From contig CAVKEL010000036.1 of assembly GCA_963655445.1 (NCBI GenBank), forward strand, positions 1 through 25,817: a stretch of 25,817 bases of DNA, given 5' to 3'. A model generated the notes under the pieces. It was given only the letters and a program-made list of their open reading frames with translations. It was not told the DNA's origin and made no database searches. Shown piece by piece: positions 1,987-24,147 of this stretch. Source of the stretch: Acutalibacteraceae bacterium (lineage in GTDB: Bacteria > Bacillota_I > Bacilli_A > RFN20 > CAG-826). The position numbers were made by a program, and so were the translations under genes. Within the stretch, counting starts at the first letter, position 1. Each line of letters begins with the position of its first letter.

Positions 1987-3152
1987 TAAAAGAATTCGAC
2001 TTAATTGAAAGATTCAATGAAGTTTATAAAGAAGAACCAAGTTATTACATTGATACTGGTGGAAGATTTGAAATAATTGGTAATCATACTGATCATAATC
2101 ATGGACTATGTTTGGTCGCAAATTGTTCATTAAGAGTTAAGGCTGTTTTAAATAAAAATCCAGATATGGTCCGTATTAAATCACATGGTTATCCTTTCAT
2201 GGTTTTTGACTTGCAAGATTTAGAAGTTAAGGAATCAGATAAAAATACATCTTTAGGGTTATGTAAGGGGATTTTATTTAAACTTAAAGAACAAGGATAT
2301 CAAGTTGGTGGATTTGATGCGGTTATTGATAGTGAAATTCCATTTGGCGCAGGTGTTTCAAGCTCTGCTGCAATTGAATCTTTATTTGGTTATATAATTT
2401 CTTATTTATATAATGATGGAAAGATTTCTCCAATGGTAATTGCAAAAGATGGGCAATTTAGCGAGAATCATTATTTTGGGAAACCATGTGGTCTTTTAGA
2501 CCAAATAGGAACCAGTTTTGGAAATTGTAACTTTATAGATTTTAAAAATATTGATGATCCAATTGTTGAAACTTTAGATTTTGAGTTGCCTTTGACTTTG
2601 TATTTAATAAAATCTGCCGGAAATCATAGTAATTTAACTCCTTTATATGCTGCAATTCCTAATTCAATGTATGAAGTAGCAGAAAAACTTGAAGGCAAAC
2701 ATTTCTTAAGAGATGTTAATTCTGTGGATATTTATGAAAAAATTGAAAAATTAGATTGTCCAGATGAAGTTAAAAGAAAAGCAAAGCATTTCTTCCTTGA
2801 AAATAACAACGTCAAGTATGCAAAAGAAGCGGTTGAATCAAATAATATTGAAGACTTCTTAGGTGCTATAAGAAATTCACAACATAGTAGCAAAGTAAAT
2901 TTAGAAAATACTTTCGTTAAAGGCGAATATGAAGATTCCATGCAAAATATTGTTGATGATGTAGACAAATTCTTAGGGAAAAATGGAGCAATCCGTATTC
3001 ATGGCGGTGGTTTTAAAGGAACTTGTTTAGCTTTTGTTAAGAATAGTTTTGTTGATAAATTTGATGAATATTTAAGCGAACATTATTCAAATGATAGATA
3101 TTTTAAAGTTCATATTAGCAATTCAGCTGTGAATTTTAAGAAATTAAAATAA
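1983..3152 (+). CDS. galK: Galactokinase (GHMP kinase)
   Basis: GRFEIIGNHTDH, PFGAGVSSSAA (GHMP ATP loop), KPCGLLDQ and HGGGFKG. ATGA overlap with galT. Confidence 0.9.
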   Translation: MIKEFDLIERFNEVYKEEPSYYIDTGGRFEIIGNHTDHNHGLCLVANCSLRVKAVLNKNPDMVRIKSHGYPFMVFDLQDLEVKESDKNTSLGLCKGILFKLKEQGYQVGGFDAVIDSEIPFGAGVSSSAAIESLFGYIISYLYNDGKISPMVIAKDGQFSENHYFGKPCGLLDQIGTSFGNCNFIDFKNIDDPIVETLDFELPLTLYLIKSAGNHSNLTPLYAAIPNSMYEVAEKLEGKHFLRDVNSVDIYEKIEKLDCPDEVKRKAKHFFLENNNVKYAKEAVESNNIEDFLGAIRNSQHSSKVNLENTFVKGEYEDSMQNIVDDVDKFLGKNGAIRIHGGGFKGTCLAFVKNSFVDKFDEYLSEHYSNDRYFKVHISNSAVNFKKLK

Positions 3153-3196
3153 CTATTTTAATTATTAAATTTGCATAGTATTATATGCAACGTGCT

Positions 3197-3242
3197 CGAG
3201 TGTCTTCCCATGACTAACCACTCGTAAAATTAAACAGGGGGG
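3197..3242 (+). ncRNA. Candidate preQ1 class I-like riboswitch (translational, Shine-Dalgarno sequestering)
   Basis: Perfect stem CGAGTG (3197-3202)/CACTCG (3219-3224). The 16-nt loop begins UC and ends UAAC. An A-rich tail TAAAATTAAAC runs into AGGGGGG, the Shine-Dalgarno (SD) 9 nt before the queT ATG. Loop CUUCCC can pair with GGGGGG. It sits directly upstream of queT. Confidence 0.7.
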
Positions 3243-3251
3243 TTTCTTTGA

Positions 3252-3794
3252 ATGAAAAAGAATACTTTAATTAGTAAGATTGCAATTAATGCGATAATTG
3301 CAGCCTTATATGTTGTTTTATCTTTAATAAGTGGGCCGCTAGCGTTTGTTGGTGGTTCTCTTCAATTTAGGCTGAGTGAATTATTAAATTTGTTAATATT
3401 TTTTAATCCAATTTATATTTTTGGAGTTTCTTTGGGATGCTTATTAACAAATATTATTTCTCTTTATGGATGGCCAGATTTGATTTTTGGAACATTAGCA
3501 ACAGTTATTAGTGGACTTTTAATTATTTTAGTATCTAAAACTATTAAAAAGTTATTTATCGCATCATTGATGCCTGTAATTATTAATGCTTTAATTGTTC
3601 CCTTTGTTATCTTTTTATATGATACATCAATTGCCTTATATACTTTTTATTGGACATCATTTATGTTTGTAGGATTAGGCGAATTGATTGTTGTAACTAT
3701 AATTGGTTACCCTTTATTTTTGGTTCTAGTAAAGAAAATTAAAGGAATAAATAAGATAATTTACATCACTCAAAACGAGGATGTTAAATGGTAG
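3252..3794 (+). CDS. queT: QueT-family queuosine precursor transporter (ECF S-component)
   Basis: 180 aa, hydrophobic, with IAALYVVL, LQFRLSELL, GCLLTN, DLIFGTLAT and VGLGELIV. It lies upstream of tgt. Confidence 0.9.
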   Translation: MKKNTLISKIAINAIIAALYVVLSLISGPLAFVGGSLQFRLSELLNLLIFFNPIYIFGVSLGCLLTNIISLYGWPDLIFGTLATVISGLLIILVSKTIKKLFIASLMPVIINALIVPFVIFLYDTSIALYTFYWTSFMFVGLGELIVVTIIGYPLFLVLVKKIKGINKIIYITQNEDVKW

Positions 3795-3886
3795 AATTTT
3801 TAATTTTTATTGAGTTATATATATCGTAATTTAAAAAAGTGCATTCTTGCTTCTCTTTATTTTTGATACGCAAAATGCTAATATAG

Positions 3887-5020
<1,134 letters not shown>

Positions 5021-6079
5021 ATGGATATAAATTTATTTGATTATTATTTGCCTGAAGAACTTATTGCTCAAACACCATGCAAAAAAAGAGATAATTGTCG
5101 TTTAATGGTTATCAATAGAGAAGATGAAACATATGAAGACAAGCATTTTTATGATATTTGCGATTATTTAAATAAAGGTGATGTTTTAGTTAGAAACAAT
5201 ACTAAGGTTATACCTGCTAGACTTTATGCTGTTAAAGAAGGAACTGGCGCCAAAGTTGAAGTATTACTTTTAAAAGATATTGGTGATGATACTTACGAAG
5301 CTCTTTGTGGAAATGCAAAAACTATAAAAGAAGGTACAGTTTTGCATTTTAAAGATGATATTTTGATTGGCACATGTGTTAAGGTTTTAGATGAAGGAAT
5401 TAGACATATCAAATTTAAATATCATGGAATTTTCTTAGAAGAATTAGATAAAATCGGACTTATGCCATTACCTCCATACATTAAAAAACAAGTTAGCGAT
5501 AATAGTGATTACCAAACTGTTTATGCAAAAGTTGAGGGAAGTGCTGCAGCTCCAACTGCAGGATTTCATTTTACTAATGAATTATTAGAAAAATTAAAAG
5601 AAAAAGGTGTAATTATTGTTGATATTACTTTGAATGTTGGTCTTGGTACATTTAGACCTGTAAAAGTTAGTGATACAAAAAATCATGTTATGCATTCCGA
5701 ATATTTTGAAATGAGTGAGGAAGCCGCAAAAACTTTGAACCTTGCAAAAAAAGAAGGAAGAAGAATTATTGCTTGTGGCACAACTTCTGTTAGAACATTA
5801 GAAGCTGTTTATTCAAAATATGGAACATTTAAGGGATGTAAAGAAAACACAAATATATTTATACAACCTGGTTATGAATATAAAGCCGTGGATGCTGTAA
5901 TTACTAATTTTCATTTACCAAAATCTACGCTCGTAATGCTTGTTAGTGCATTCATGGGTAGAGAATTTACTTTAAATTGCTACAAACATGCTGTAGAAGA
6001 AAAATATAGATTCTTTAGTTTTGGGGATGCAATGTTTATTTATGGAAAATACGATTACTCAAAAAACAAATTATTATAA
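5021..6079 (+). CDS. queA: S-adenosylmethionine:tRNA ribosyltransferase-isomerase
   Basis: FDYYLPEELIAQ, NNTKVIPARL, PLPPYI, YQTVYA, AAPTAGFHF, GTTSVRTLE, TNFHLPKSTL and YRFFSFGDAM. It abuts the tgt stop (TAAATG). Confidence 0.97.
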   Translation: MDINLFDYYLPEELIAQTPCKKRDNCRLMVINREDETYEDKHFYDICDYLNKGDVLVRNNTKVIPARLYAVKEGTGAKVEVLLLKDIGDDTYEALCGNAKTIKEGTVLHFKDDILIGTCVKVLDEGIRHIKFKYHGIFLEELDKIGLMPLPPYIKKQVSDNSDYQTVYAKVEGSAAAPTAGFHFTNELLEKLKEKGVIIVDITLNVGLGTFRPVKVSDTKNHVMHSEYFEMSEEAAKTLNLAKKEGRRIIACGTTSVRTLEAVYSKYGTFKGCKENTNIFIQPGYEYKAVDAVITNFHLPKSTLVMLVSAFMGREFTLNCYKHAVEEKYRFFSFGDAMFIYGKYDYSKNKLL

Positions 6080-6695
6080 AGAATCTTTAAAAGAATATAA
6101 AAAAATTAGGAAAGAAAATGGTAATAAAAAACCTAAACTTTTATTACATGTTTGTTGTGGGGCTTGTTCTTGTTATCCTTTAATTTTTTTGGTTGATTTG
6201 TTTGATGTTACAATTTTATTTTCTAATTCAAATATTTATCCATACGAAGAATATCAAAAAAGGTTAAATGCTTTAAAAGATTATGTTAAGGTTATCGAAA
6301 AGAAACTACAAACTAATATAAAAATTGTAGAAGATACATATGATCATAAGAAATTCATTTGTGAACTTGTCCCATTCAAGGATGAACCTGAAGGAGGAAA
6401 GAGGTGTCATAAATGCATTAGAATGCGTATGGAGCGACTTTTTGATTATGCGGAGAATAACGGATATAATTTAGTTACAACCGTAATGTCAATATCGCGT
6501 AATAAAGATACTTTTTATTTAAATTCCTTAGGGAAAGAATTAGAAGAGAAGCATAAAGGTATAAAGTATTTCGTTAATGATTTTAAAAAGAACGGTGGGC
6601 AAGATTTGGGTGTTGAATTATCTAAAGTTTTTAATGTTTATCGTCAAGATTATTGTGGCTGCGAATTTAGTTTGAGAAGGGGAGAAAATGAGTGA
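6042..6695 (+). CDS. queH: Epoxyqueuosine reductase QueH (DUF208)
   Basis: LLLHVCCGACS, NSNI, EPEGGKRCHKC and YRQDYCGCEFS. I prefer ATG 6042 (MENTIT...) over the track's TTG 6021, but the start is uncertain. It overlaps the queA end. Confidence 0.88.
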   Translation: MENTITQKTNYYKESLKEYKKIRKENGNKKPKLLLHVCCGACSCYPLIFLVDLFDVTILFSNSNIYPYEEYQKRLNALKDYVKVIEKKLQTNIKIVEDTYDHKKFICELVPFKDEPEGGKRCHKCIRMRMERLFDYAENNGYNLVTTVMSISRNKDTFYLNSLGKELEEKHKGIKYFVNDFKKNGGQDLGVELSKVFNVYRQDYCGCEFSLRRGENE

Positions 6696-9198: not shown

Positions 9199-9510
9199 AT
9201 GGCAAAAGTCAAAAAGATTAGAGTTCGTTTACAAGCTTATGACCACAAAGTGTTAGATTTTGCGGTAAGTAAAATTGTAACTGCAATTCGAAACACAGGT
9301 GCTGAAGTAGTCGGACCTATTCCACTTCCAACGGAAAAACAAGTCTACACAATCTTAAGAGCTGTCTTTAAATACAAAGACTCTCGTGAACAATTTGAGA
9401 TTAGAACACATAAGAGAATTATCGATATCACTAATCCAAACAATGCAACAATTGAAGCTTTACGTAAGTTAGATCTTCCAAGTGGTGTTGATATCGATAT
9501 CAAGTTATAG
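9199..9510 (+). CDS. rpsJ: 30S ribosomal protein S10 (uS10)
   Basis: [18 protein letters not shown] and [22 protein letters not shown]. Confidence 0.98.
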
Positions 9511-9523
9511 GAGGTAAGGCACA

Positions 9524-10399
9524 ATGAAAAGTATCATCGGTAGAAAAATTGGTATGACCGAGGTATATGCAGAAGATGGAACAATGTATGCCGTCACTGT
9601 TGTAGAAGTCTTACCAAACGTTGTTACCCAAAAGAAAACTGTCGAGAAAGATGGTTATGAAGCTCTTCAAGTCGGATATGAAGACAAGAAAGAGAAAAAT
9701 GTAAATAAACCAATGAAAGGTATTTACAAGAAAGCTAATGTTTCACCAAAACAACATTTATATGAATTAAAGGGTGATGAACTTAGCAATTATGAAGTCG
9801 GTCAAGAAATTAAAGCTGATATCTTCCAAATTGGTGATGTAGTTGATGTAATTGGTCATTCAAAAGGAAGAGGATATGCTGGTGTTATTAAGAGATGGCA
9901 TCACAAAATCGGACCAAAAGGACATGGTAGTGGTTACCACAGAGGTCAAGGTTCATTTGCTAACAATGGCCGTTGCAATAACCGTGTTATCCCAGGCAAG
10001 AAGATGGCTGGACACATGGGCAATGATAGAGCAACTGTCTTAAATGCTCGTGTTATTGCAGTTGATGCAACCAAAAATTATATCTTAGTTAGTGGTGGAG
10101 TTCCTGGTAGTAAATTAAGCATCGTTATGATTCGTAGCGCTGTTAAAGGAATTAAACATCCAGAAACAATTAAACCATTACTTGATAGAGCTGCTTATGA
10201 TGCTGCTATTGCTCAAAAGGCTGCTGAAGAAGCTGCTGCAAAAGAAGCAAAGAAAGCAGAAGAAAAAGCAAAAGTTGAAGCCGCTAAGAAAGCTGCTGAA
10301 GAAAAGAAAGCTGCTGAACAACGTGCTGCAGCTGAAGCTAAAAAAGCTGAAGAGGCTGCTTCAAGTGAAGCAAGTGCTCCAAGCGAAGAAAATAAATAG
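9524..10399 (+). CDS. rplC: 50S ribosomal protein L3 (uL3) with long Ala/Lys/Glu C-terminal tail
   Basis: GRKIGMT, DGYEALQVG, SKGRGYAGVIKRW and GKKMAGHMG. Confidence 0.97.
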   Translation: MKSIIGRKIGMTEVYAEDGTMYAVTVVEVLPNVVTQKKTVEKDGYEALQVGYEDKKEKNVNKPMKGIYKKANVSPKQHLYELKGDELSNYEVGQEIKADIFQIGDVVDVIGHSKGRGYAGVIKRWHHKIGPKGHGSGYHRGQGSFANNGRCNNRVIPGKKMAGHMGNDRATVLNARVIAVDATKNYILVSGGVPGSKLSIVMIRSAVKGIKHPETIKPLLDRAAYDAAIAQKAAEEAAAKEAKKAEEKAKVEAAKKAAEEKKAAEQRAAAEAKKAEEAASSEASAPSEENK

Positions 10400-10416
10400 T
10401 AGAAAGGAAATCATTT

Positions 10417-11049
10417 ATGGCTAATACAATGAAATTAAAAGTATTTAAACAAGATGGTTCAGAAGCTTCTACTGTTGATGTTTCCAAAAATGTATTTGGA
10501 TTTGAAGCTGATGGTTCAGAATCTGCAATGTTCAACGCTGTTCTTGTTTATAGAGCAAACTTAAGACAAGCAACTGCCAAAACTAAAAAGAGATTTGAAG
10601 TTTCTGGTGGTGGTAAAAAACCATTCAGACAAAAAGGAACTGGTAGAGCAAGAGCTGGTTCATCAAGATCACCAATTTGGGTTGGTGGTGGAACCGTATT
10701 TGGTCCTACTGGAGTCCAAAACTTCAAGATTAGACAAAACAAGAAAGAACATGCTATTGCAGTCAAGAGTGCATTAAGCCTCTTAGCTAAGAAAGATATG
10801 GTTGTTCTTGATGGTTTAAAAGTTGAAGGTAAAACTAAGGAAATTGTCAAATTATTAGAAGCATTAAAAATTAATGAAAATAAGGTTTTAATCGTCAGTG
10901 AAGATGATAAAGTCTTACAAGCTTCAAACAATCTTCCAAATGTTTTAAATAGAAGTTATGACAATTTAAGTGTTTACGATTTATTAAATACTGAAAAACT
11001 TGTCATCGTTAAAGAAGATTTAAAGAAATTAGAGGAGGGACTTAAATAA
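10417..11049 (+). CDS. rplD: 50S ribosomal protein L4 (uL4)
   Basis: EVSGGGKKPFRQKGTGRARAGSSRSPIWVGGG. Confidence 0.97.
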   Translation: MANTMKLKVFKQDGSEASTVDVSKNVFGFEADGSESAMFNAVLVYRANLRQATAKTKKRFEVSGGGKKPFRQKGTGRARAGSSRSPIWVGGGTVFGPTGVQNFKIRQNKKEHAIAVKSALSLLAKKDMVVLDGLKVEGKTKEIVKLLEALKINENKVLIVSEDDKVLQASNNLPNVLNRSYDNLSVYDLLNTEKLVIVKEDLKKLEEGLK

Positions 11050-11456
11050 TGGCTAAAGAAAAGAAAGTCGCTGAAGTTAGCGAAGTTAAAGAAGAAAAGA
11101 AACCAGCTAAGAAAGCCGCTAAAAAAGAAGCTGTTAAAGAAGTTTCTTCAAAATTCCCAAAAGCAACAATTCATGATCACGAAGTAATTATTGAACCAAT
11201 AATTACTGAAAAGAGCATGAGCTTAACTTCCGAACAAAATAAAGCAACCTTTAAAGTTCAAAAGGATGCAAATAAGATCGAAATTAAGAATGCTATTCAA
11301 AGAATTTATGGCGTTAAAGTTTTAGAAATTAAAACTGTTAATGTTAAACCAAAGAGAACTACTCGTGGAAGTAGATTCCAAGGTAAATTAAGTGGATACA
11401 AAAAGGCCGTTGTCCGTTTAGAAAGTGGACAAGCAATTGACCTTTTCAAGGAATAA
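11049..11456 (+). CDS. rplW: 50S ribosomal protein L23 (uL23) with N-terminal Lys/Glu/Ala extension
   Basis: PIITEKS, ANKIEIKNAI and YKKAVVRL, in the expected operon position. Confidence 0.95.
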   Translation: MAKEKKVAEVSEVKEEKKPAKKAAKKEAVKEVSSKFPKATIHDHEVIIEPIITEKSMSLTSEQNKATFKVQKDANKIEIKNAIQRIYGVKVLEIKTVNVKPKRTTRGSRFQGKLSGYKKAVVRLESGQAIDLFKE

Positions 11457-11489
11457 ACCCGTATCCTTATATAATATAGGAGAAAAAAT

Positions 11490-12323
11490 ATGCCAATTAA
11501 AAGTTATAAACCATATACTCCTTCAAGAAGAGCTATGCAAACTACTTCTTACGAGGAAATTACAAAGAGCACTCCTGAGAAATCATTAGTTGTTACCTTA
11601 AAAAAGACTGGTGGAAGAAATAACCAAGGCGTTATCACTTGCCGTCACATTGGTGGAGGTAATAAGAGAAAATATCGTATTATCGATTTCAAAAGAGATA
11701 AGAAGGGTGTTCCTGGAAAAGTTAGCGCTATCGAATATGATCCAAACCGTAATGCTTTCATTGCTTTGATTAATTATGTCGATGGTGAAAAGAGATATAT
11801 CATTCAACCAAAAGGTTTAAAGGTTGGAGATAAAATCATTAGTGATGATCAAACAGATATCGTTGTTGGTAACTGTTTAAAACTTGAAAATATCCCAGAA
11901 GGTACTGTCGTTAACTGTGTTGAACTTAAACCTGGAAAAGGTGGTCAACTCTGTCGTGCTGCTGGATGTAGCGCTCAAGTACTTGGTAAAGAAGGAAAAT
12001 ATGTCATTATCCGTTTACAAAGCGGTGAAATGCGTAAAATCTTAGCAAGTTGTAGAGCTACAATCGGTTCAGTCGGTAATGAAGATTATACCCTTGTTAA
12101 TGTTGGTAAAGCCGGTAAAACAAGATGGATGGGAACAAGACCTACCGTTAGAGGTAGCGCAATGAACCCACCTGATCACCCACATGGTGGTGGTGAAGGT
12201 AAGTGTCCAGTTGGTCACGATGCACCACGTACTCCATGGGGCAAGAGAGCTTTAGGTCTCAAGACCCGTAAGAATAAGAAAGCTTCTACCAAGCTTATAA
12301 TTCGTAGAATAAATGATAAATAG
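11490..12323 (+). CDS. rplB: 50S ribosomal protein L2 (uL2)
   Basis: [21 protein letters not shown] and [17 protein letters not shown]. Confidence 0.98.
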
Positions 12324-12344
12324 TAAAGGAAAGGAGAGATAAAT

Positions 12345-12665
12345 ATGTCAAGAAGTCTTAAAAAAGGACCATTCGTTGATGGACACCTTATGAAAAAAGT
12401 CCAAGAACTCAATGAAAGCAATAAAAAAGCTATCATCAAGACTTGGAGTAGAAGAAGTACAATTTTCCCAGATTTTGTCGAGCACACCTTTGCTGTTTAT
12501 AACGGTCATACCTTTATTACAGTTTATGTAACACAAGATATGGTTGGTCACAAATTAGGTGAATTCGCCCCAACAAGAACTTTCAAAGGTCACTTTGGAA
12601 ATAATGCTGAGGATAAGGCCGCAAATATGGCAGCAGCTGGTGTTAAACCATCTGCAAAGAAATAG
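12345..12665 (+). CDS. rpsS: 30S ribosomal protein S19 (uS19)
   Basis: [21 protein letters not shown] and [13 protein letters not shown]. Confidence 0.98.
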
Positions 12666-12675
12666 GAGATAAGTT

Positions 12676-13212
12676 ATGGCAGAAAAAATTGAAAAGAAAC
12701 CAGTAGCTAAGAAAGCTCCAGCAAAGAAAGCTGAAACTAAAGCTGCTCCAGTTAAAGAAAAGAAATCTCCAAAAGCTAAAGTTGCTGAAGAAAAGAAAGT
12801 TGAAGTTAAAGAAGAAAAGAAATCAACTAAGAAAGTCAGTGCTAAGAAAGTCGAAGAAGTTAAACCAACAGTCACTGAAGCAAAAGCAAGTGCACTTAGC
12901 GTTAAAATTACTCCTCGTAAAGCAAGATATGTTCTTGATGCAATAAGAGGGAAAGATGTTGATGAAGCTCTTGGAATCTTAGCAAATAGTGGCAGAGCAA
13001 AAGCAAATAGAATTGTTTCAAAATTAATTCTTAGTGCAAAAGCTAATGCAACTAATAACTACAACATGAATGAAGAAAAATTATATATTGCTTCAATTCA
13101 AGCAAGCGATAGTATCAAGATGAGAAGATATCTTCCACGTGCTAAAGGTAGCGCTAGTGGAATGGTTAAGAGATATTCAAATATCTATGTAACCTTAAAG
13201 GAAAGAGATTAG
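12676..13212 (+). CDS. rplV: 50S ribosomal protein L22 (uL22) with about 65-aa basic N-terminal extension
   Basis: ITPRKARYVLDAIRGK, SAKANATNN and PRAKGSA. Confidence 0.95.
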   Translation: MAEKIEKKPVAKKAPAKKAETKAAPVKEKKSPKAKVAEEKKVEVKEEKKSTKKVSAKKVEEVKPTVTEAKASALSVKITPRKARYVLDAIRGKDVDEALGILANSGRAKANRIVSKLILSAKANATNNYNMNEEKLYIASIQASDSIKMRRYLPRAKGSASGMVKRYSNIYVTLKERD

Positions 13213-13228
13213 GAAAGGAGAGAAAACA

Positions 13229-14029
13229 ATGGGTCAAAAAGTTAATCCAGTCGGACTTAGAATCGGTTTAAATAAAGATTGGTCCAGTAGATGGTTTGCA
13301 GAAAATAAAGATTTTTCTACTTTCTTACTCGAAGATAGCAATACTCGTAAATATCTTGAAAAAACAATCGCTAAAGATGCTTATTTAAGCCATATTGATA
13401 TCGAAAGAAAGAAAACTGATAAAGGTTATAACGTTAATGTTCAAATCTTTGTTGCTCGTCCAGGTTTCGTTATTGGCGAAAAAGGTGCCAACATTGAAGT
13501 TTATAAGAAAGCTATCAGTAAAATTTGCAATGGTGCAAATATTAAAATTGATGTTATCGAAGTTAAAAATCCTAGCTTAGATGCACGTATCGTCAGCGAA
13601 CAAATTGCTGATCAACTTGAAAGACGTGCTTCCTTCCGTATTGCTCAAAAGAAAGCAATTATGCAAGTTAGAAAAGCTGGTGCAAGAGGTATTAAAACTC
13701 GTGTTTCAGGAAGACTTGGCGGTGCTGAAATTGCTCGTGAAGAAGGATATAAAGAAGGAACTATGGCAATCAATACCTTAAGAACTGATATTGATTATGC
13801 AATTAGTGAAGCTCATACCACTTATGGAAAACTTGGTGTCAAAGTCTGGATTTCAAGAGGAGAAAAAGAATTTGGTAAATTTGAAGAAGAAACTCAAAAG
13901 AGTGATGCTGAAATCAACGCTCCAAAATTCAATAAGGGTGGAGATAGAGGAGATAGAAACAACAAACGTTTTGCTCCTAAAAAAGAAAACAATGCTCCAG
14001 TAAAAGAAGAAGCTAAGAAAGGAGAATAA
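13229..14029 (+). CDS. rpsC: 30S ribosomal protein S3 (uS3)
   Basis: [24 protein letters not shown] and [12 protein letters not shown]. Confidence 0.98.
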
Positions 14030-14031
14030 CT

Positions 14032-14589
14032 ATGTTACAACCAAAAAGAGTTAAATATAGAAGACCACATATTATTAAATATGAAGGTTTATCAAAAGGT
14101 GGTAACGAAGTAGCCTTTGGTGAATATGGTTTACAAGCCACTGAAGGTGCTTGGGTAAGTGATCGTCAAATTGAAGCTTGCCGTGTTATCTTATCTCGTT
14201 ACACTAAAAGAACTGGTAAATCATGGATTAGAATTTTCCCTCACTTAGCAAAAACTAAGAAACCTGCTGAAGTTCGTATGGGTTCAGGAAAAGGTAATCC
14301 AGAATACTGGGTCGCAGTCGTTAAAAAGAATAGAATTTTATTCGAAGTTGCTGGTATTCCAGAAGAACTCGAAAAAGAATGCTTAAGAATGTGTTCCTAT
14401 AAGTTACCACTTAAGTGCAAGATCGTTAAAACTAATAGAAAAGTCGCTAATTACGTTCATTCAGATAGTGATGCAGTTGTCGCTCCAAGCGAAAATGCTC
14501 CTACTCAACCAGAAGTTATCCATGGTGGTAATGAAGTGAATGAAGGTGCTGTAGCTGATAAATCACAAAAGAAGGAGAGTACTAGATAA
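14032..14589 (+). CDS. rplP: 50S ribosomal protein L16 (uL16) with C-terminal extension
   Basis: [16 protein letters not shown] and EVRMGSGKG. Confidence 0.97.
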
Positions 14590-14591
14590 CT

Positions 14592-14789
14592 ATGAAAATC
14601 GAAGAAATTAAGAAAATGTCTACAGAAGATTTAAATAGTAAAGTATATTCCCTTAAAGAAGAGTTATACGATCTTCGTAGAAAAAAAGCTGTTGGACAAT
14701 TAGAAAATCTTTCTCATATTAAAGAAGTTAGAAAAGACATTGCTCGTATCTATACTGTTTTGAAAGAAAGAGAACTTGGAATTAAATAA
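14592..14789 (+). CDS. rpmC: 50S ribosomal protein L29 (uL29)
   Basis: LKEELYDLR, GQLEN and VRKDIARIYT, in the expected position. Confidence 0.95.
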   Translation: MKIEEIKKMSTEDLNSKVYSLKEELYDLRRKKAVGQLENLSHIKEVRKDIARIYTVLKERELGIK

Positions 14790-14799
14790 GGAGTAAGTT

Positions 14800-15135
14800 A
14801 TGGATAAACGTAGAAGAATTCAAGGTGTCGTTTTTTCAAATAAAAACGATAAAACCATTGGCGTTATGTTAAGCGGTTATAAAAAACACTCCAAATATTT
14901 AAAGAGAGTTCAATTTAGAAGCAAATATTATGCTGATGATCCAAAAAATGAAGCTAAGGTTGGTGATTTAGTCACTATTGAAGAGTGCAGACCAATCTCA
15001 AAAACAAAAAGATTTAAACTTGTTTCAATAGATAAGAAAGCTTTAGAAGAAATTAAAGTTTCTGAAGAAGCTGCTGTTGAAGAAGTCTTACATGATGAAG
15101 ACAAGAGTGAAGAAGAAACTAAGGAGGAAAACTAG
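14800..15135 (+). CDS. rpsQ: 30S ribosomal protein S17 (uS17) with acidic tail
   Basis: [12 protein letters not shown] and [18 protein letters not shown]. Confidence 0.95.
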
Positions 15136-15137
15136 TT

Positions 15138-15515
15138 ATGATACAAACAGAAACCAATTTAGTTGTAGCTGATAATAGCGGCGCTCACCTTGTTAGAGTC
15201 TTCAGACTCTATGGTGGTAGCCATAGAAAATCAGTTTCAGTCGGCGATATCGTCTTATGTGCTGTTAAAGATGCAGAACCAGCTGGAAAAGTTAAAAAGA
15301 GTCAAATCGTTAAAGCTGTTATTGTTCGTACATCTTATCCAATTCAAAGAAAAGATGGCAGTTCAATCAGATTTGATGACAATGCTTGCGTTATTATTGA
15401 TGACAATAAAAACCCAGTTGGAACACGTGTTTTCGGACCTGTTGCCCGTGAAATTCGTGAAAAAGGTGGAGATGGATTTATGAAGATTATCTCCCTTGCA
15501 ACTGAAGTTTTATAG
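15138..15515 (+). CDS. rplN: 50S ribosomal protein L14 (uL14)
   Basis: MIQ...VADNSGA, FDDNACV and [13 protein letters not shown]. Confidence 0.98.
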
Positions 15516-15529
15516 AAAGGATAAATGCT

Positions 15530-15841
15530 ATGAAAATTAAAACTGGTGATAAGGTCATTGTCATAAGTGGCAAAGACAAGGGTAAAACTGGTGTTGTTCA
15601 AAAAGTTTATCCTAAAGTTAATAAAGTTGTTGTTGAAGGCGTTAATATTCATAAAAAACACCTCAAACCAACTCAACAAAATCCAGAAGGAAGCATTCAA
15701 GAAATGTATGCTCCACTTGATGCTAGCAAGGTAATGTATTACGATGCTAAAGCAAAGAAGGGAACAAGACTTGGATATAAAGTTTCCAAAGATGGATCAA
15801 AAGTTAGATTCGCTAAAAAGAGCGGTCAAGAAATTAAGTAA
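15530..15841 (+). CDS. rplX: 50S ribosomal protein L24 (uL24)
   Basis: KOW motif [16 protein letters not shown] and VEGVN. Confidence 0.97.
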
Positions 15842-15852
15842 AGGAGAGAATT

Positions 15853-16512
15853 ATGGCAGAAGAAAAGAAAAGTGTTGCTAAAAAATCAGTAAAAGCTGAT
15901 TCTCCAAAAGCTCCAAAAGAATCTAAACCAGAAGCAAAGAAAGTTTCTAATGGTCATAAAGAAGCTACAAATACTACAAGACTTTTAGAAAAATACAACA
16001 AAGAGATCAAACCAGAACTTTTAAAGAAGTTCGAATATAAGAGCGTTATGCAATGCCCAAAACTTGAGAAGATTGTTGTCAATATTGGTGTTGGTGATGC
16101 AACTCAAGATGATAAGAGACTTGATGAATGTGTTGAAGAAATTGCTTTAATTACAGGACAAAAATGTGTTGTTACTAAAGCTAAAAAATCAATTGCTCCA
16201 TTTAAATTAAGAGAAGGACAATCAATTGGTTGTAAAGTTACTCTTAGAGGAGTCAGAATGTATGAATTCTTTGATAAACTCGTATCAATTGCTCTCCCAC
16301 GTGTCCGTGATTTTAGAGGTGTTTCTAAAAACTCATTCGATGGAAGAGGAAATTATACTTTAGGTGTTAAAGAACAACTTATATTCCCAGAAATTGATTA
16401 TGATAAGGTTGGCAAGGTTAGAGGTATGGATGTCGTTATCGTAACCACTGCAAATAGTGATGAAGAAGCATATGCATTACTTAAAGCCTTAGGTATGCCT
16501 TTCAGTAAATAG
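15853..16512 (+). CDS. rplE: 50S ribosomal protein L5 (uL5) with about 40-aa N-terminal extension
   Basis: [25 protein letters not shown] and FDGRGNY. Confidence 0.97.
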
Positions 16513-16528
16513 TTAGGAGGAAATAAAC

Positions 16529-16714
16529 ATGGCAAAGAAAAGTTTAATTGCAAAACAAGAGCGTAAGCCAAAGTTCTCAACTCGTGCTTATTCTCGTTGT
16601 AAAAGATGTGGACGTCCTCATGGCGTTTACTCAAAATTCGGATTATGTAGAATTTGCTTAAGAGAGCTTGCTTATAAAGGTGAGATCCCTGGCATGAAGA
16701 AATCTTCATGGTAA
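16529..16714 (+). CDS. rpsN: 30S ribosomal protein S14, zinc-binding 61-aa (type Z) form
   Basis: RCKRCGRP...FGLCRIC, ending KKSSW. Confidence 0.97.
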
Positions 16715-16733
16715 TTATTAGGAGGAAAAAACG

Positions 16734-17132
16734 ATGCATCAAGATCCAATAGCCGATATGCTAACAAGAATTAGAAACGCTAACGCTATTCGTAAAGACA
16801 GTGTTTCTATGCCTTCTAGTAAAATTAAAGTCGGAATCGCTAAGATTCTTCTTAGTGAAGGTTTTATAAAAGATTATAAAGAAAGCAAAGTCAGTGAAGG
16901 TAAAAAAGAATTAACAATTACCTTAAAATACGGACCAAATGGTGAAAGAGTCATCTCTGGACTTAAGAGAATTTCAAAACCTGGTCTTAGAGTCACTGCT
17001 GATAGCAAAAACTTACCAAGTGTCTTAAGAGGTTTAGGTATTGCTATCATCTCAACTAGTAAAGGACTTTTAACCGATAAAGAGTGTAAAGCTCAAAATG
17101 TCGGTGGCGAAGTTATTTGCTACATCTGGTAG
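16734..17132 (+). CDS. rpsH: 30S ribosomal protein S8 (uS8)
   Basis: [20 protein letters not shown] and GGEVICYIW. Confidence 0.98.
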
Positions 17133-17143
17133 GAGGTAAGAAT

Positions 17144-17695
17144 ATGTCAAGAATTGGAAATAAACTTATTAATATACCAGAAGGATTAAATGTCTCAGTT
17201 GATGGTGATGTTATTGATATCAAAGGTAAAGTTGGTGAAGATAAAATTAAATTTGATAAAAACTATGTTGATATCGAAATTAACGATGGAATTATCAAAG
17301 TTACTCGTAAAAATGAAGAAAAACACACCAAACAAATGCATGGAACCACTCGTGCTTTATTACATAATGCAATAGTTGGATGTAGTGAAGGATTTACCAA
17401 AGAATTAGAACTCGTTGGTATTGGTTATAGAGCAGAACTTAAAGGAAAAGATTTAGTACTTTATGTTGGATATAGCCATCCTGTAACTATTTCTCCACTT
17501 GAAGGAGTCACTATTTCATTAAAAGATGCCAACCACGTTGTTGTCACTGGAAGTGATAAATTCAAAGTTGGTCAAGTCAGTGCATTAATTCATGACACAC
17601 GTAAACCTGAACCATATCAAGGTAAAGGTATTAAGTATAAAGGCGAAGTTATCATCCGTAAGGAAGGTAAGAGAGCTGGTGCTGGTGCTAAATAA
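17144..17695 (+). CDS. rplF: 50S ribosomal protein L6 (uL6)
   Basis: The canonical start MSRIG is at ATG 17144 after SD AGGAGG; the track's TTG 17117 lies inside rpsH. GYSHP and PEPYQGKGI. Confidence 0.97.
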   Translation: MSRIGNKLINIPEGLNVSVDGDVIDIKGKVGEDKIKFDKNYVDIEINDGIIKVTRKNEEKHTKQMHGTTRALLHNAIVGCSEGFTKELELVGIGYRAELKGKDLVLYVGYSHPVTISPLEGVTISLKDANHVVVTGSDKFKVGQVSALIHDTRKPEPYQGKGIKYKGEVIIRKEGKRAGAGAK

Positions 17696-17707
17696 GGAGA
17701 TTAATTT

Positions 17708-18064
17708 ATGATTAAGAAAGTTAGTAAAAATGAAGTCCGTGTTAGAAAACACGTTCGTGTCAGACAAAAAGTCTCCGGTACAAGCGAAAAACCAAGATTA
17801 TGTGTCTTCAGAAGTAATAAACACATTAGCGCTCAAGTTATTGATGACGTTAAGGGAGTTACCTTAGTTAGCTCATCAAGCGTTGCTTTAAAGCTTAATG
17901 ATGGTGGTAATGTTGAAGGCGCTAAAAAAGTTGGTGAAGATATTGCTAAGAAATGCTTAGAAAAGAAGATTGATACCGTTGTCTTCGATAGAGCAGGTTA
18001 TATCTATCATGGTAGAGTTAAGGCTCTTGCCGAAGCCGCAAGAAGTGCAGGCTTAAAATTCTAA
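17708..18064 (+). CDS. rplR: 50S ribosomal protein L18 (uL18)
   Basis: [12 protein letters not shown] and [17 protein letters not shown]. Confidence 0.97.
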
Positions 18065-18076
18065 GGGAGATCACTT

Positions 18077-18751
18077 ATGGAAAATGAAAACAAAGTAGAA
18101 GTTGCTCAAGAAGAGCAAGTTAAAACTGAAGCCCCTCAAACTGAAAATGTTGAAGGACAAGAAAAAGCTCATGACCAACGTGGTCCAAAAAACGGTAGAA
18201 ATGATCGTAAAGGTGGAAAACGTCCTTTCAATAAACAAAATAGAAAGCCTGAAGTTAAGGAATTCGAAGAAAGAGTAGTTTACATTAACAGAGTCACCAA
18301 AGTTGTTAAAGGTGGTAAGAGAATGAAATTCAGTGCTCTTGTTGTTGTTGGAAACCACAAAGGCAAATATGGATTTGCAATGTGCAAGAGTGGTGAAGTC
18401 CCAGATGCAATCAAGAAAGCAGTTGATAAATCAAAACGTAATCTTTACGAAATTAAACTTGTTGGAAGTGCAAAAACTATTTCCCACGATGTTATTGGAA
18501 AATATGGTGCAACAACAGTTTTCTTAAAACCAGCTTTAGATGGTACTGGAATTATTGCTGGCGGACCAGTCCGTGCTATTTTAGAACTTTGTGGCGTTAA
18601 TAACGTCTATTCAAAAGTTTATGGTTCCAGAACTTCAGTCAACGTAATTAGAGCTACAAACGCTGCTTTAAATCAATTAAAAGATTATAAATCAGTTCAA
18701 GCTTTACGTGGAATTGGCGTAGAAGAAGGAGGAAAAGACGATGTTAAATAA
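18077..18751 (+). CDS. rpsE: 30S ribosomal protein S5 (uS5) with N-terminal extension
   Basis: INRVTKVVKGG, EVPDAIKKA and GTGIIAGG. Confidence 0.97.
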   Translation: MENENKVEVAQEEQVKTEAPQTENVEGQEKAHDQRGPKNGRNDRKGGKRPFNKQNRKPEVKEFEERVVYINRVTKVVKGGKRMKFSALVVVGNHKGKYGFAMCKSGEVPDAIKKAVDKSKRNLYEIKLVGSAKTISHDVIGKYGATTVFLKPALDGTGIIAGGPVRAILELCGVNNVYSKVYGSRTSVNVIRATNAALNQLKDYKSVQALRGIGVEEGGKDDVK

Positions 18752-19187
18752 CTTAAAACCTGCTTCAGGCAGCCGTAAAAAGAAAATCAGAAGATGTAGA
18801 GGTCTTGGAAGCGGACTTGGAAAGAATGGTGGATCTGGTAATAAAGGTCAAAATTCTAGAACTGGTGGCGGAGTCGCTTTAGGATTTGAAGGTGGACAAA
18901 ACCCACTTTGGAGAAGATTACCAAAGAGAGGTACTGGTTTCAAATCACATTGCCATGTCACCTATGCAGTCGTTTCTTTAACTGATATTAATGAAAAATT
19001 CAAGGATGGAGATGTTGTTACAACAACCGAACTCATTGAAAAAGGATTAGTTAAAAAAGAACTCTATGGTACTAAAATTTTAAATGGTACTTTAGAAAAG
19101 AAGCTTACAATAAAAGCTGATAAATTCAGTGCAAGTGCACTCGAGACCATTAAAAATACAGGTTCGACTGCAGAAGTTGTTGAGTAA
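18741..19187 (+). CDS. rplO: 50S ribosomal protein L15 (uL15)
   Basis: RGLGSGLGK, KGQNSR and GFEGGQNPLWRRLPKRG. It overlaps rpsE by 11 nt. Confidence 0.97.
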   Translation: MLNNLKPASGSRKKKIRRCRGLGSGLGKNGGSGNKGQNSRTGGGVALGFEGGQNPLWRRLPKRGTGFKSHCHVTYAVVSLTDINEKFKDGDVVTTTELIEKGLVKKELYGTKILNGTLEKKLTIKADKFSASALETIKNTGSTAEVVE

Positions 19188-19232
19188 AATTTTAATAGGT
19201 CTTATATTATTAAATATTGTAGGATTTTTTAA

Positions 19233-20579
19233 ATGAGGAAGTTCATTGAAGTATTTAAAAACAAAGAAGTTGTTAATCGTATATTTTTTACGATAATGAT
19301 TTTATTTGTATTTAGAATTGGTGCTGCTATCACAGTTCCTGGCATTGATGTCAGCCAACTTAATGAGCAAATCAATAATAGCAATAGTATATTGGCTATT
19401 ATGAATTTGCTTGGTGGTGGTGCTTTAAGTAACTTTAGTGTATTTGCTCTAGGTGTTTCACCATATATTACAGCTCAAATTATTATTCAACTTTTAAGTA
19501 TGGATGTTCTTCCAGCTTTGACTGAACTTACGAAGCAAGGTCAATATGGTCGTAAAAAGATTGAAATGGCTACAAGATATTTAGCCTTAATGCTTGGAGC
19601 TGTTCAAGGATATGGTATTATTCAAACCGCGAAAAATGTTAGTTGGATATCTCTTACAATGGAAGAAAATTTCTTCACATATGCTTATATTGTTACAGTT
19701 TTAGTAGCTGGTACAATGCTTGTCATGTGGCTTGGTGATCAAATCACTGATAAAGGCGTTGGTAATGGTATTTCAATTATCATTTTTGCAGGTATTGTTG
19801 TTTCTCTTCCTAACCAAATTACAACAGCTTTCTCTAAATGGATTTTATCTAGTTGGAGTTTAGGAAGTGCAGAGGCAAGTTTAGGTGTATTTAGATTTAT
19901 CCTTTATATATTAGCGCTTGTTGCAATTATTGCTTTCGTTACATTTATTGAATTAAGTAAACGTAAAATTCCTGTTCAACATAGTTCAAGAAGTGGCGGA
20001 AGTGAAAAAATGAGTAGAGCCAGTTTCTTACCAATTAAGGTAAATAGTGCTGGTGTTATCCCTGTTATTTTTGCTTCATCAATATTAACAGCTCCTAGTA
20101 TTATTGCTTCATTTATTTCAAGTGATGCAGCTAATGCAAGCTGGCTTGATATATTTAATTATTCAAAATTAACAGACATGGGCAATGGAGTCTATTTCCC
20201 ATGGGGCTTAATCATTTATATTGTGCTCGTGTTTGCCTTTACATTCTTCTATTCTAATTTACAAATTAATCCAGAAAGAATGGCTGAAGACTTTAAGAAA
20301 AACGGCAGTTATATTCCAGGAATTAGACCTGGCGTTGAAACTGAACGTTATGTTAGAAAAGTTTTAAACCGTGTAACCTTAATCGGTGCATTATCCCTTT
20401 GCTTTATTAGCGCTCTTCCAGTTGTTTTAACTTTAACTGGTGCATTTGGAGACGATTCTAGTTTAGCAATTGGCGGTACTGGTTTGATCATTGTTGTTGG
20501 TGTTGCTATCGAAATTAGTAAGCAAATCGATGGACTTATTGCTGGGAAATCATATGATGAAGTTATGGGAGGAATGTAA
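19233..20579 (+). CDS. secY: Preprotein translocase subunit SecY
   Basis: FALGVSPYITAQII, GVGNGISIIIFAGI, SAGVIPVIFA, IPGIRPG and GGTGLIIVVGV. Confidence 0.98.
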   Translation: MRKFIEVFKNKEVVNRIFFTIMILFVFRIGAAITVPGIDVSQLNEQINNSNSILAIMNLLGGGALSNFSVFALGVSPYITAQIIIQLLSMDVLPALTELTKQGQYGRKKIEMATRYLALMLGAVQGYGIIQTAKNVSWISLTMEENFFTYAYIVTVLVAGTMLVMWLGDQITDKGVGNGISIIIFAGIVVSLPNQITTAFSKWILSSWSLGSAEASLGVFRFILYILALVAIIAFVTFIELSKRKIPVQHSSRSGGSEKMSRASFLPIKVNSAGVIPVIFASSILTAPSIIASFISSDAANASWLDIFNYSKLTDMGNGVYFPWGLIIYIVLVFAFTFFYSNLQINPERMAEDFKKNGSYIPGIRPGVETERYVRKVLNRVTLIGALSLCFISALPVVLTLTGAFGDDSSLAIGGTGLIIVVGVAIEISKQIDGLIAGKSYDEVMGGM

Positions 20580-20581
20580 TT

Positions 20582-21226
20582 ATGTTTCGTTCAATCATTT
20601 TACTTGGTGCTCCAGGCGCTGGAAAAGGCACTAATGCAAAACGCATAACTAAAACATTTAATATTCCCCATATTTCTACTGGTGATATGTTTAGAGAAGC
20701 AATTAAAAACCATACAAAACTTGGTGAAGAAGCTAGTAGCTATATGCAAAAAGGTCTTCTTGTTCCTGATTCAATTACAATTGGATTAGTAAAGGAAAGA
20801 CTTGCAAAAGACGATTGTAAAGATGGATTTTTACTTGATGGTTTCCCAAGAAATGTTTCACAAGCTGAAGCATTAAGTGAAATAGGTAAAGATCTAAATC
20901 GTCCAATTAATTATGTTATAGACATTAATGTTCCAGAATCTGTTTTAAAAGATAGAATCTGTGGCAGACGTGTTTGTAAGGTTTGTGGCGCTCCATACCA
21001 CGTAACTAATATGAAACCAAAAGTCGAAGGTGTTTGCGACTTATGTGGAGGCGAGCTTATTCAAAGAAAAGATGACAATGAAGAAGCTTTAAAGGTTCGA
21101 CTTAGTGAGTATCATAAGCAAACAGAACCTCTTGAAAAGTATTATTCTAATGTTCTTTATACCATTGATGGAACAAAGAATTTAGATGATTTACTTGAAG
21201 AAATTAAAGGAATCTTAGGAGAATAG
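20582..21226 (+). CDS. adk: Adenylate kinase with zinc LID
   Basis: GAPGAGKGT, HISTGDMFR, LDGFPR and CKVC...CDLC. Confidence 0.97.
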   Translation: MFRSIILLGAPGAGKGTNAKRITKTFNIPHISTGDMFREAIKNHTKLGEEASSYMQKGLLVPDSITIGLVKERLAKDDCKDGFLLDGFPRNVSQAEALSEIGKDLNRPINYVIDINVPESVLKDRICGRRVCKVCGAPYHVTNMKPKVEGVCDLCGGELIQRKDDNEEALKVRLSEYHKQTEPLEKYYSNVLYTIDGTKNLDDLLEEIKGILGE

Positions 21227-21231
21227 TTATC

Positions 21232-21990
21232 TTGATTATTGAAAAATCTCCTCGAGAAATTGCTTTAATGAAAGAAGCCGGGGAAGTTTTAATTGGTCTA
21301 TTTGATCTATTGGAAGAAAACACTGTACCTGGCAAAACAACCAAAGAATTAGATAGCTTAGCTAGAAAGTATATCCTCTCAAAAGGGGGATATCCTTCTA
21401 GTTATCACTATGAAGGATTCCCTGGTAATATCTGCATCTCAGTCAATGATACTTTGATTCATGGTATCCCTAGCGATAAGATTGTCTTAAAAGAAGGCGA
21501 TATTGTGAGTTATGATTGCATGTGTACAAAACATGGTTATGTTGCAGATGCTTGCCGTACTTTTCCAGTTGGTAAGGTAAGCGAAGAAGCAAAAAGACTC
21601 ATTGAAGTTACAAGAAATTGTTTCTTTAATGCAGTGAAACTTGTTAAACCTGGAATTCATCTTGGCGTCATTAGTCACGAAATCGAAAAAACTGCAAGAG
21701 AAGCAGGTTATACTGTGACTCCGCTTTACACGGGACATGGAGTTGGTAGAGATGTTCACGAAGACCCATATGTTCCAAATTGTGGTAAAGAGACAGATGG
21801 ACCAATTTTAAGAAAAGGAATGACTATTGCAATTGAACCAATGGTTAATGAAGGCAAAGTTGACTTAATCACTTTAAAAGATGGTTGGACTGTTAAGACT
21901 AAAGATGGAAAGTTATCTTGTCATTACGAAAATACGGTTGTAATTACAGATGACGGTTATGAGATTATCACTTTAAAAAAGGAGAATTAA
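21232..21990 (+). CDS. map: Methionine aminopeptidase type I (TTG start)
   Basis: CISVND...HGIP, GHGVG...HEDP, IAIEPM and HYENT. Confidence 0.96.
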   Translation: MIIEKSPREIALMKEAGEVLIGLFDLLEENTVPGKTTKELDSLARKYILSKGGYPSSYHYEGFPGNICISVNDTLIHGIPSDKIVLKEGDIVSYDCMCTKHGYVADACRTFPVGKVSEEAKRLIEVTRNCFFNAVKLVKPGIHLGVISHEIEKTAREAGYTVTPLYTGHGVGRDVHEDPYVPNCGKETDGPILRKGMTIAIEPMVNEGKVDLITLKDGWTVKTKDGKLSCHYENTVVITDDGYEIITLKKEN

Positions 21991-22209
21991 ATGGCTAAAC
22001 AAGATGTTATTACCGTCGAGGCGGTTGTTGTTGAAAGTTTACCAAATTGTAATTTTAAGGTAAAACTTGAAAACGATGTTGTAATTCATGCCACTGTTTC
22101 TGGTAAAATCCGTATGCATTACATTCGCATCTTACCAGGTGATCGAGTTACTATTGAATTATCGCCTTATGATTTAAACAATGGCAGAATTGTTTTTAGA
22201 CATAAGTAG
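21991..22209 (+). CDS. infA: Translation initiation factor IF-1
   Basis: MAKQDVI and [17 protein letters not shown]...SPYDL. Confidence 0.98.
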
Positions 22210-22233
22210 TCTAAAGGAAATAGGAGAAAAAAG

Positions 22234-22347
22234 ATGAAAGTTAGACCATCAGTTAAACCTATTTGTGACAAGTGCAGAGTCATTAAAAGACATGGTGTTG
22301 TTATGGTTATTTGCAGCAACCCAAAGCACAAACAAAGACAAGGTTAA
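22234..22347 (+). CDS. rpmJ: 50S ribosomal protein L36 (zinc type), absent from the ORF track
   Basis: Manual translation gives [45 protein letters not shown] upstream. Confidence 0.97.
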
Positions 22348-22371
22348 TTTTTGAAAGGAAGAAAATAAGAT

Positions 22372-22746
22372 ATGGCACGTATTGTTGGTGTTGATATTCC
22401 AAATGAGAAAGTTGTTAGAGTCTCATTAACTTATATTTATGGTATCTGCGACACTTTAGCTAAACAAATTTGTGAAACTGCAAAAGTTGATCCACAAAAG
22501 AGAGTTAAAGATTTAACCGAAGAAGAAACTGCAGCAATTAGAGCTGCAATTGGTCATCACAAAGTTGAAGGTGACTTACGTAGAGAGCAAATGCTCAATA
22601 TTAAAAGATTACAAGAAATTGGCTGCTATAGAGGTATTAGACATAGAAGAGGTCTTCCAGTAAGAGGACAAAGAACTAAAACTAATGCTCGTACTCGTAA
22701 AGGTCCACGTAAGACTATTGCGAATAAGAAGGAAGCCGTTAAGTAA
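22372..22746 (+). CDS. rpsM: 30S ribosomal protein S13 (uS13)
   Basis: [10 protein letters not shown] and [26 protein letters not shown]. Confidence 0.98.
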
Positions 22747-22764
22747 TAGGGGAGGGATGAATTT

Positions 22765-23154
22765 ATGGCAAAGAAACAAACTACCCGTAAGAAAAAGATT
22801 AAGAGATCGTTTTCAAAAGCAGTCGCTCACATTCATGCTTCATTCAATAACACAATTGTTACAATTACAGATGAACAAGGAAACGTTATTGCTTGGAGTA
22901 GCACAGGTGTTTTAGGCTTTAAAGGTGCTAAAAAATCTACACCATTTGCTGCTCAAAGTGCTGCTGAAGCTGCAGGAAAGAGTGCTTTTGAACAAGGTAT
23001 TAGAACTGTTGATGTTGATGTTAAAGGACCAGGAGCTGGTAGAGAAAGCGCAATTAGAGCTTTAACTAATGCTGGTTTAACTGTTACTAGTATTAACGAT
23101 TCAACTCCAATCCCACATAACGGATGTCGTCCACCAAAGAGACCAAGAGGATAA
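22765..23154 (+). CDS. rpsK: 30S ribosomal protein S11 (uS11)
   Basis: [21 protein letters not shown] and [11 protein letters not shown]. Confidence 0.98.
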
Positions 23155-23163
23155 TAGATATTT

Positions 23164-24144: not shown

Positions 24145-24147
24145 ACA

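Follow-up and report, generated by a model that had tools for sequence, protein, structure and literature searches.

Comparative evidence for a probable lineage-specific variant of the class I preQ1 riboswitch upstream of queT in uncultured Bacilli

The queT leader and its genomic setting

The question raised by this locus is whether the 46-nt element of two helices that ends 9 nt upstream of the queT start codon (ATG at 3252, as read out from the sequence) is a preQ1 riboswitch and, if so, of which kind, for which ligand and by which mode of control. The window, meaning here the whole 25,817-nt stretch of DNA that was analyzed (contig CAVKEL010000036.1, Acutalibacteraceae bacterium), contains the element at positions 3197–3242; all features described below lie on the forward strand. 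Comparisons with relatives indicate that the element is real and well conserved. Very probably it represents a form of the class I preQ1 riboswitch peculiar to this lineage, in which the helix covering the Shine-Dalgarno (SD) sequence is lengthened. The initial annotation of this DNA had proposed a preQ1-I-like H-type pseudoknot before queT, able to hide the SD, and the comparison with relatives bears this out.

The first helix, P1, pairs CGAGUG (3197–3202), whose G3202 matches the G of the pocket-floor G-C pair, with CACUCG (3219–3224), the latter strand being assigned from sequence and covariation. Between the two strands lies a loop of 16 nt (3203–3218) ending in C3218, which consists of L1 (4 nt), the 5′ strand of P2 (6 nt) and L2 (6 nt). 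L1 (3203–3206) comprises a conserved UCU and a variable insert, a single nucleotide in the window, and its U3203 and C3204 correspond to U6 and C7 of the Thermoanaerobacter tengcongensis (Tte) aptamer, the residue roles behind this assignment being those given in PMC7641330 and PMC10622847. The 5′ strand of P2, which is also the anti-SD (3207–3212), is made up of CCC, of A3210, either unpaired or in an A.G pair, and of UG, with G3212 in the place of Tte G11. L2 (ACUAAC, 3213–3218) carries A3217 (Tte A14) and the specificity base C3218 (Tte C15). The A-rich L3 (3225–3234) ends in A3234 (Tte A29), its final two A being invariant in the alignment used for covariation (A1). The 3′ strand of P2 together with the SD, delimited by comparison, occupies 3235–3242 and comprises C3235 (Tte C30), A3236 and a run of six G (3237–3242). 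From the G-run to the start codon extends a U-rich spacer (3243–3251), a possible termination or pause tract recognized from the U count in 48 copies. Both strands of P1, the 16-nt loop, the A-rich tail, A3236 and the G6 run had been located by the initial annotation exactly as described here.

A candidate -10 hexamer, TATTAT (3179–3184), matching five of six positions, lies 12 nt upstream of P1 and marks an inferred promoter. TATAAT-like hexamers with five of six matches stand 5–16 nt upstream of P1 in 30 of the 48 distinct copies, most commonly at 11 nt, a count made without a shuffled control, and a scan for consensus promoters and terminators made no call in the leader. The position of this hexamer close upstream of P1 suggests that the transcript probably begins with the switch. 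At the other end of the element, 41/48 copies have their first ATG 11–16 nt past the point where the G-run begins; the assembly yielded no 16S 3′ end. The candidate -10 box is overlapped by a perfect 7-bp inverted repeat (TTGCATA/TATGCAA, 3171–3190), which L002 and L003, the two closest relatives, share and which is not obvious in the others. The repeat might serve as an operator or as a weak terminator of galK, the gene that ends upstream of the leader at 3152.

The regulated gene, queT (3252–3794), encodes a 180-aa component of a queuosine-precursor transporter of the QueT family (PF06177, 124.7 bits, E 4.6e-36). It is followed by tgt (3893–5020; PF01702, and 522 bits against a cut-off of 307 for TIGR00430, the bacterial Tgt model), queA (5021–6079; PF02547) and queH (6021–6695; PF02677), and tgt-queA-queH is the pathway that uses imported preQ1. 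In the window, tgt begins 98 nt past queT. This gap (3795–3892) contains an extended -10-like site, TG-C-TAATAT, which recurs in L002 and L003, and -10-like hexamers precede tgt in 19/27 relatives against 9/27 in a control stretch, with none passed in the window. A terminator-like hairpin with a T-rich tail is located inside the coding region of queT (3333–3368; one found, against a mean of 0.3 in shuffles). Further downstream, the S10-spc-alpha ribosomal protein operons occupy positions 9199–24543, and across the entire window, the region before rpsJ included, no hit rose to the gathering score of any Rfam family.

Conservation of the element and of its helices

A search of 61 related genomes detected QueT in 44, among them 31 of the 36 other members of the genus, and the motif was present in all 32 genus queT leaders read, the source genome counted in. 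It was kept even though galK lies upstream in just 5 of 30. Among eight leaders from two genera of the sister family, five shared the core but differed in P1 and had an L2 of 4 nt, one had a canonical type I switch, and two were without the motif. A pattern specifying neither P1 pairing nor UCU returned 59 matches in the GTDB collection (185,579 species), 58 of them directly before queT, and the single exception lacked both P1 and UCU. These matches carry labels such as Candidatus Onthovivens and Candidatus Enterosoma among many uncultured Bacilli, and the names of unrelated taxa attached to some genus-like sequences were taken for submitters' labels. Metagenome contigs gave 38 matches, of which 35 had GUCU and a P1 of at least six pairs and 34 had a detectable queT, one match having only 77 nt of flank. 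Four pattern matches without GUCU, without the family P1 and without queT downstream (L133, L187, L190 and L208) are probably chance matches. The window contains the pattern a single time and none of 100 shuffles does, and viral contigs gave 0 matches. A search of 150 other genomes of the class with model R1, scoring 40 candidates per genome, produced weak matches in three genomes (best E 3e-4), whose four sites were rejected since queT was not found downstream; the same search missed known sister leaders and is thus a weak negative.

The 95 motif loci, drawn from overlapping sets, reduce to 48 distinct cores, of which the 38 with short inserts form alignment A1. Pocket bases were counted in 37 loci found by homology, namely the 32 unselected genus loci and the five motif-bearing loci of the sister family; loci found by pattern were left out of these counts, the pocket positions being built into their parse. 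As the copies are kin, the counts overstate independence. Of the 74 rows of a quick QueT tree, the 36 that carry the core all fell inside one group of 41 (SH-aLRT 90, not strong), whose other rows are one leader of canonical type I and four that lack the motif.

All six pairs of P1 are canonical in 48/48 distinct copies, and the pocket-floor G-C pair is likewise present in 48/48. Three pairs of this helix change on both sides and covary: counted from the loop, pair 2 occurs as U-A, G-C, C-G and U-G, pair 4 as A-U, U-A and C-G, and pair 6 as C-G, A-U and G-C. For the whole structure in A1, 99% of cells pair and 39 cells are altered on both sides. The covariation value was 0.264 against 0.051 in shuffles, with 0/500 shuffles as high and slid controls reaching at most 0.015, and the number of covarying pairs was not above that of shuffles (429/500). 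Folded by itself, the sequence of 3197–3242 was no better than shuffles (z +0.96), so that the single sequence does not show the element beyond chance and the comparison does; this null folding signal is what a pseudoknot would be expected to give, the folding program being unable to draw one.

Covariation among queT leaders, which the initial annotation had named as a check, was found in P1; P2 pairs were never altered on both sides in the 38 sequences of A1, and for this reason the alignment is silent on P2. The conserved match in P2 is that of CCC-A-UG with CA-GGG(G), which is complementary in all copies. Within the genus the CCC-A-UG strand is invariant except for CCCAUUG (three distinct copies) and CCCAAUG (one copy). 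CCCAUUG is always paired with a CAAG tail (3/3), neither change being seen alone in the tail, and this matched U/A insertion is probably a single event, because the three cores belong to one subclade. In the sister genera, a perfect CCUUG/CAAGG helix is present in 20 leaders and UCUGG/CCAGG in two, a two-sided change in 2/22. Together, these comparisons give moderate support to the pairing of P2 and in part establish an H-type pseudoknot whose five to six pairs are predicted to bury most of the SD; CCC and the G-run could each be conserved for other reasons.

The six-pair helix CUUCCC/G6 originally proposed for the pseudoknot can form in the window, where the duplex (four G-C and two G-U pairs) has a computed energy of -8.8 kcal/mol, equal to that of the register with the two pocket-side pairs. 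As a conserved pseudoknot it does not hold: G6 occurs in 3/48 distinct copies, the two bases before CCC take six forms in the 48 cores, and the three extra pairs of this helix are paired in 54% of cells, with the last column mostly gaps. The CUUCCC/G6 register also omits the pocket-side pairs G3212-C3235 and U3211-A3236. The G-run contains at least four G in 37/37 homology-found loci (28 with G5, five with G6 and four with G4), which fits the register with an A.G pair, and selection on the SD explains it as well. Computed energies do not separate P2 with A3210 bulged from P2 with A.G paired.

Relationship to the known preQ1 riboswitches

The element was suspected to be a form that standard models miss, and it is indeed missed: the Rfam preQ1 models gave no match in 3000–3400 at E values up to 10, and RF01054 and RF02680 gave no match in a search with all 4227 Rfam families. 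RF00522 produced 23 weak matches over the whole genome, none at the element, and its cut-off (39 bits) was passed in 0/41 genus genomes. However, little novelty can be read from this failure: canonical type I leaders of the same order also remain below the threshold (20.6–27.5 bits against 39). Weakly scoring forms in the same order link the element to RF00522 (L039 with 23.3 bits, L064 with 20.4 and L059 with 19.0), and a model built for this analysis finds those sister leaders.

In the class I aptamers of known structure, preQ1 pairs with the cytidine that ends L2 and is read along its minor-groove edge by a uridine of L1 and an adenine of L3, and the ceiling of the Tte pocket is composed of C7, G11-C30 and A14, as described in PMC10622847 and PMC7641330. 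The matching bases (C3218, U3203, A3234, C3204, G3212-C3235 and A3217) are all present in 37/37 homology-found loci, the correspondence with the Tte ceiling being one of sequence position only. AC directly before the 3′ strand of P1, the feature by which PMC11625349 defines preQ1-I type II, was also found in 37/37. Type II (RF00522) includes the translational queT switch of Thermoanaerobacter tengcongensis and the transcriptional queC switch of Bacillus subtilis (Bsu), and has the same H-type pseudoknot with a short P1. The element shares with it AC before the 3′ strand of P1, a U and a C opening the loop, the G-C ceiling pair, the A-rich L3 and queT as a target, and its L2 is 6 nt long as in Bsu, while the sister family has 4 nt as in Tte. 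According to PMC3905878, the Bsu and Tte aptamers have a P1 of 5 bp, an L1 of 2 nt, a P2 of 4 bp and L2 of 6 and 4 nt, respectively. In contrast, P1 has six pairs here, L1 ranges from 4 to 39 nt, and P2 has five to six pairs with an unpaired or mismatched A where type II has four steps; most of the SD is predicted to be buried, compared with two bases in Tte. Failing both the RF00522 score and the compact geometry of type II, the element would be a type II-like variant rather than a plain member. Literature searches returned no paper on this form, and the type II alignment of McCown 2014 might already include such members.

Other preQ1 riboswitches are more distant. Type III, as in E. coli yhhQ (PDB 8fza), resembles the element in its pyrimidine-rich anti-SD loop, the near-complete burial of the SD and AC at the specificity base. 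However, type III has a UU motif, a shorter loop and a first SD adenine that contacts the ligand, whereas the loop of the element starts with UC and is 16 nt long, and a C stands between the pocket adenines and the SD. Type I, known from Carnobacterium antarcticum with two stacked ligands, has the same fold and occurs before queT in other families of the order. It needs UC before P1, UU atop P1 and CUA in the tail, according to PMC11625349 and PMC8752633; the element has AC, UC and CAG instead, and the absence of these type I features leads to the expectation that a single ligand is bound. The preQ1-II (RF01054) and preQ1-III (RF02680) riboswitches respond to the same ligand and often precede the same gene, and class II also buries the whole SD, but both form larger pseudoknots of the HLout kind, built from at least four helices, whereas the element has two.

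The loop, whose length had been remarked at the outset, measures 16 nt against 12 in Bsu and 10 in Tte; compared with these two aptamers it gains two extra bases in L1 and two more in the P2 strand. Across the GTDB order RFN20, preQ1-I-like leaders were found in 47 of 60 sampled queT genes (0/60 on the reverse strand and 2/600 shuffles). One of the 47 parses (L069) is doubtful. Loops measured 12–15 nt in 46 of the 47, which places the 16-nt loop of the window at the upper end of a continuum. L2 is 4–5 nt in the sister family against 6 nt here. L1 is variable: the inserts of relatives without a hairpin measure 1–6 nt, and 10 of the 48 cores carry an AU-rich insert of 20–36 nt between UCU and CCC. 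All ten long inserts fold as hairpins (-3.1 to -9.7 kcal/mol; 0–8 of 500 mononucleotide shuffles as stable). These hairpins intervene between UCU and CCC and thereby place the C of UCU outside any continuous helix with CCC. Judged from the copies compared, L1 appears to be a tolerant insertion site. The hairpin carriers are L025–L030, L126, L127, L132 and L140, with the rest of the aptamer unchanged, and their hairpins are of two sequence types in two subclades of the QueT tree, suggesting that they may have arisen twice.

Control of queT and the nature of the ligand

The formation of P1, the linkage to queT and the retention of the bases that contact preQ1 in solved structures emerge from the comparison of sequences. 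The element is probably a preQ1 riboswitch of class I whose pocket resembles that of type II and which would shut down queT translation when preQ1 is plentiful. By analogy with the Tte structure, preQ1 would stack between P1 and P2 and pair with C3218, U3203 and A3234 would hold it in place, and C3204.G3212-C3235.A3217 would form a ceiling over it. Once bound, preQ1 would lock P2, so that most of the SD would be buried and the ribosome blocked; at low preQ1, P2 would open and the importer would be made.

The U-rich tract after the G-run is left unexplained by this translational model. At least five U occur in the 8 nt after the G-run in 38/48 cores, compared with 39/298 SD-to-ATG spacers and 7/35 sister-type leaders; the 298 background spacers are those of this one genome, and kinship inflates the 38/48. 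Since a G-C-rich helix followed by a U-tract has the layout of an intrinsic terminator, P2 might stop or pause RNA polymerase, and the aptamer could act also or mainly on transcription, with P2 as the stem of a terminator or pause and no separate hairpin. This reading, which appears unlikely, draws on the enrichment of U right after P2, which reaches 13/14 in the short-L2 group, and on the G-C richness of the helix. Precedents exist in the pseudoknot-stabilised pausing of Bsu, described in the review PMC11625349, which also regards hairpin-free control as hard to detect, and in a terminator-embedded HMP-PP aptamer (PMC6478431). However, the G-run is the only SD candidate and stands at SD distance from the ATG. 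The start of tgt lies no more than 10 nt from the queT stop in 12/27 relatives, so that a terminator would silence the preQ1-using enzyme along with the importer. In the window the tract is broken by a C (UUUCUUU), and it is weaker in the hairpin-insert group (6/10); the relatedness of the copies and the single-genome background also weigh against a reading of the enrichment in terms of transcription. In addition, a U-rich spacer could serve to avoid competing pairs or, in the ON state, could base-pair to the A-rich tail. There is a small chance that the element represents a fourth preQ1-I subtype, in which the ligand-locked P2 would both bury the SD and act as a hairpin-free terminator or pause stem. 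If so, the pseudoknot itself would be the transcription signal, in a riboswitch of about 55 nt with a natural site for hairpin insertion in L1, and a U-tract acting in transcription would offer a concrete case of the hairpin-free pseudoknot control that the review finds hard to detect. If the tract has no role in transcription, the element is a modest extension of a well-studied class.

For the translational switch, the gene content points to preQ1 as the ligand. The pathway runs from import through TGT and QueA to QueH, with preQ1 as the free intermediate. QueF was found in 0/60 genus genomes, so that preQ0 cannot be used. QueC matches passed the Pfam cut-off in 37/60 genomes; these were weak and mostly partial (18–29 bits), and they were read as cross-hits to other PP-loop enzymes. 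Six radical-SAM proteins were found in the genome (MiaB, a HemW-like protein, MtaB, NrdG2, RimO and RlmN), and none of these six is a candidate for QueL, the genome being 86% complete. The TGT has DEC and GGTSIGE motifs, close to those of its best PDB match, which we take to be specificity motifs of the bacterial type.

The initial annotation had also raised a shifted ligand preference, towards preQ0 or queuine. That the same fold prefers another ligand (preQ0, queuine or queuosine) now seems highly improbable. In its favor, L1 and P2 depart from the characterised aptamers, and a nucleoside hydrolase is encoded in the genome that belongs to a Pfam family presumably including QueK. The C. difficile QueT/QrtT proteins carry preQ1, and one of the two also takes queuine and queuosine, as reported in PMC11130926 and PMC10723273. 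However, the ligand-contact and ceiling bases are all canonical, QueF is absent and the 86% complete genome offers no QueL candidate. The hydrolase belongs to a cluster for sugar utilisation that stands apart from the Q genes, and the TGT motifs are of the bacterial type, with QueA and QueH present. A canonical type I switch stands before one queT of the same clade, and the replacement of the element by a type I preQ1 sensor within one QueT group fits the same ligand.

A leader structure that senses no metabolite, and either holds queT translation at a fixed low level or binds a protein, is scarcely credible, for although P2 is perhaps stable enough to form with no ligand present (free-duplex energy of about -6 to -9 kcal/mol), unpaired bases are kept at the preQ1-I ligand contacts while P1 and L1 vary freely, and both the weakly scoring forms of the order and their recovery by the built model tie the element to RF00522.

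In one order of uncultured gut Bacilli, 47 leaders among 60 were positive in the scan for preQ1-I-like elements, and none of the 20 + 15 + 18 loci scored with Rfam reached a preQ1 cut-off; annotation of the smallest known riboswitch class is thus incomplete. These leaders form a natural structure-function series, with L1 of 2 to 39 nt, L2 of 3 to 6 nt and P2 with or without the unpaired base, and the hairpins in L1 point to a possible site for cargo in a widely used small aptamer.

Several leaders outside the main set deserve mention. L099/L242 (G194) is a type I switch of canonical form, followed by stem-loops and U-runs; its queT is nested among those of variant carriers, an apparent riboswitch swap. 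Canonical-looking type I switches were also found in two other families of the order (L040–L042, L044, L046 and L104–L110), most of them with terminator-like hairpins. L111 (G154) is of the kind with a long P2, and its loop ends in UC, the type I signature, rather than AC. In L070, L071, L072 and L113 (genus g29), as well as in L048, the loop ends in GG-YACC and the tail has AAAAAAUC; by position, the ceiling pair of these leaders would be G.U rather than G-C and the equivalent of A14 a C, which makes them better candidates for an altered pocket than the element of the window.
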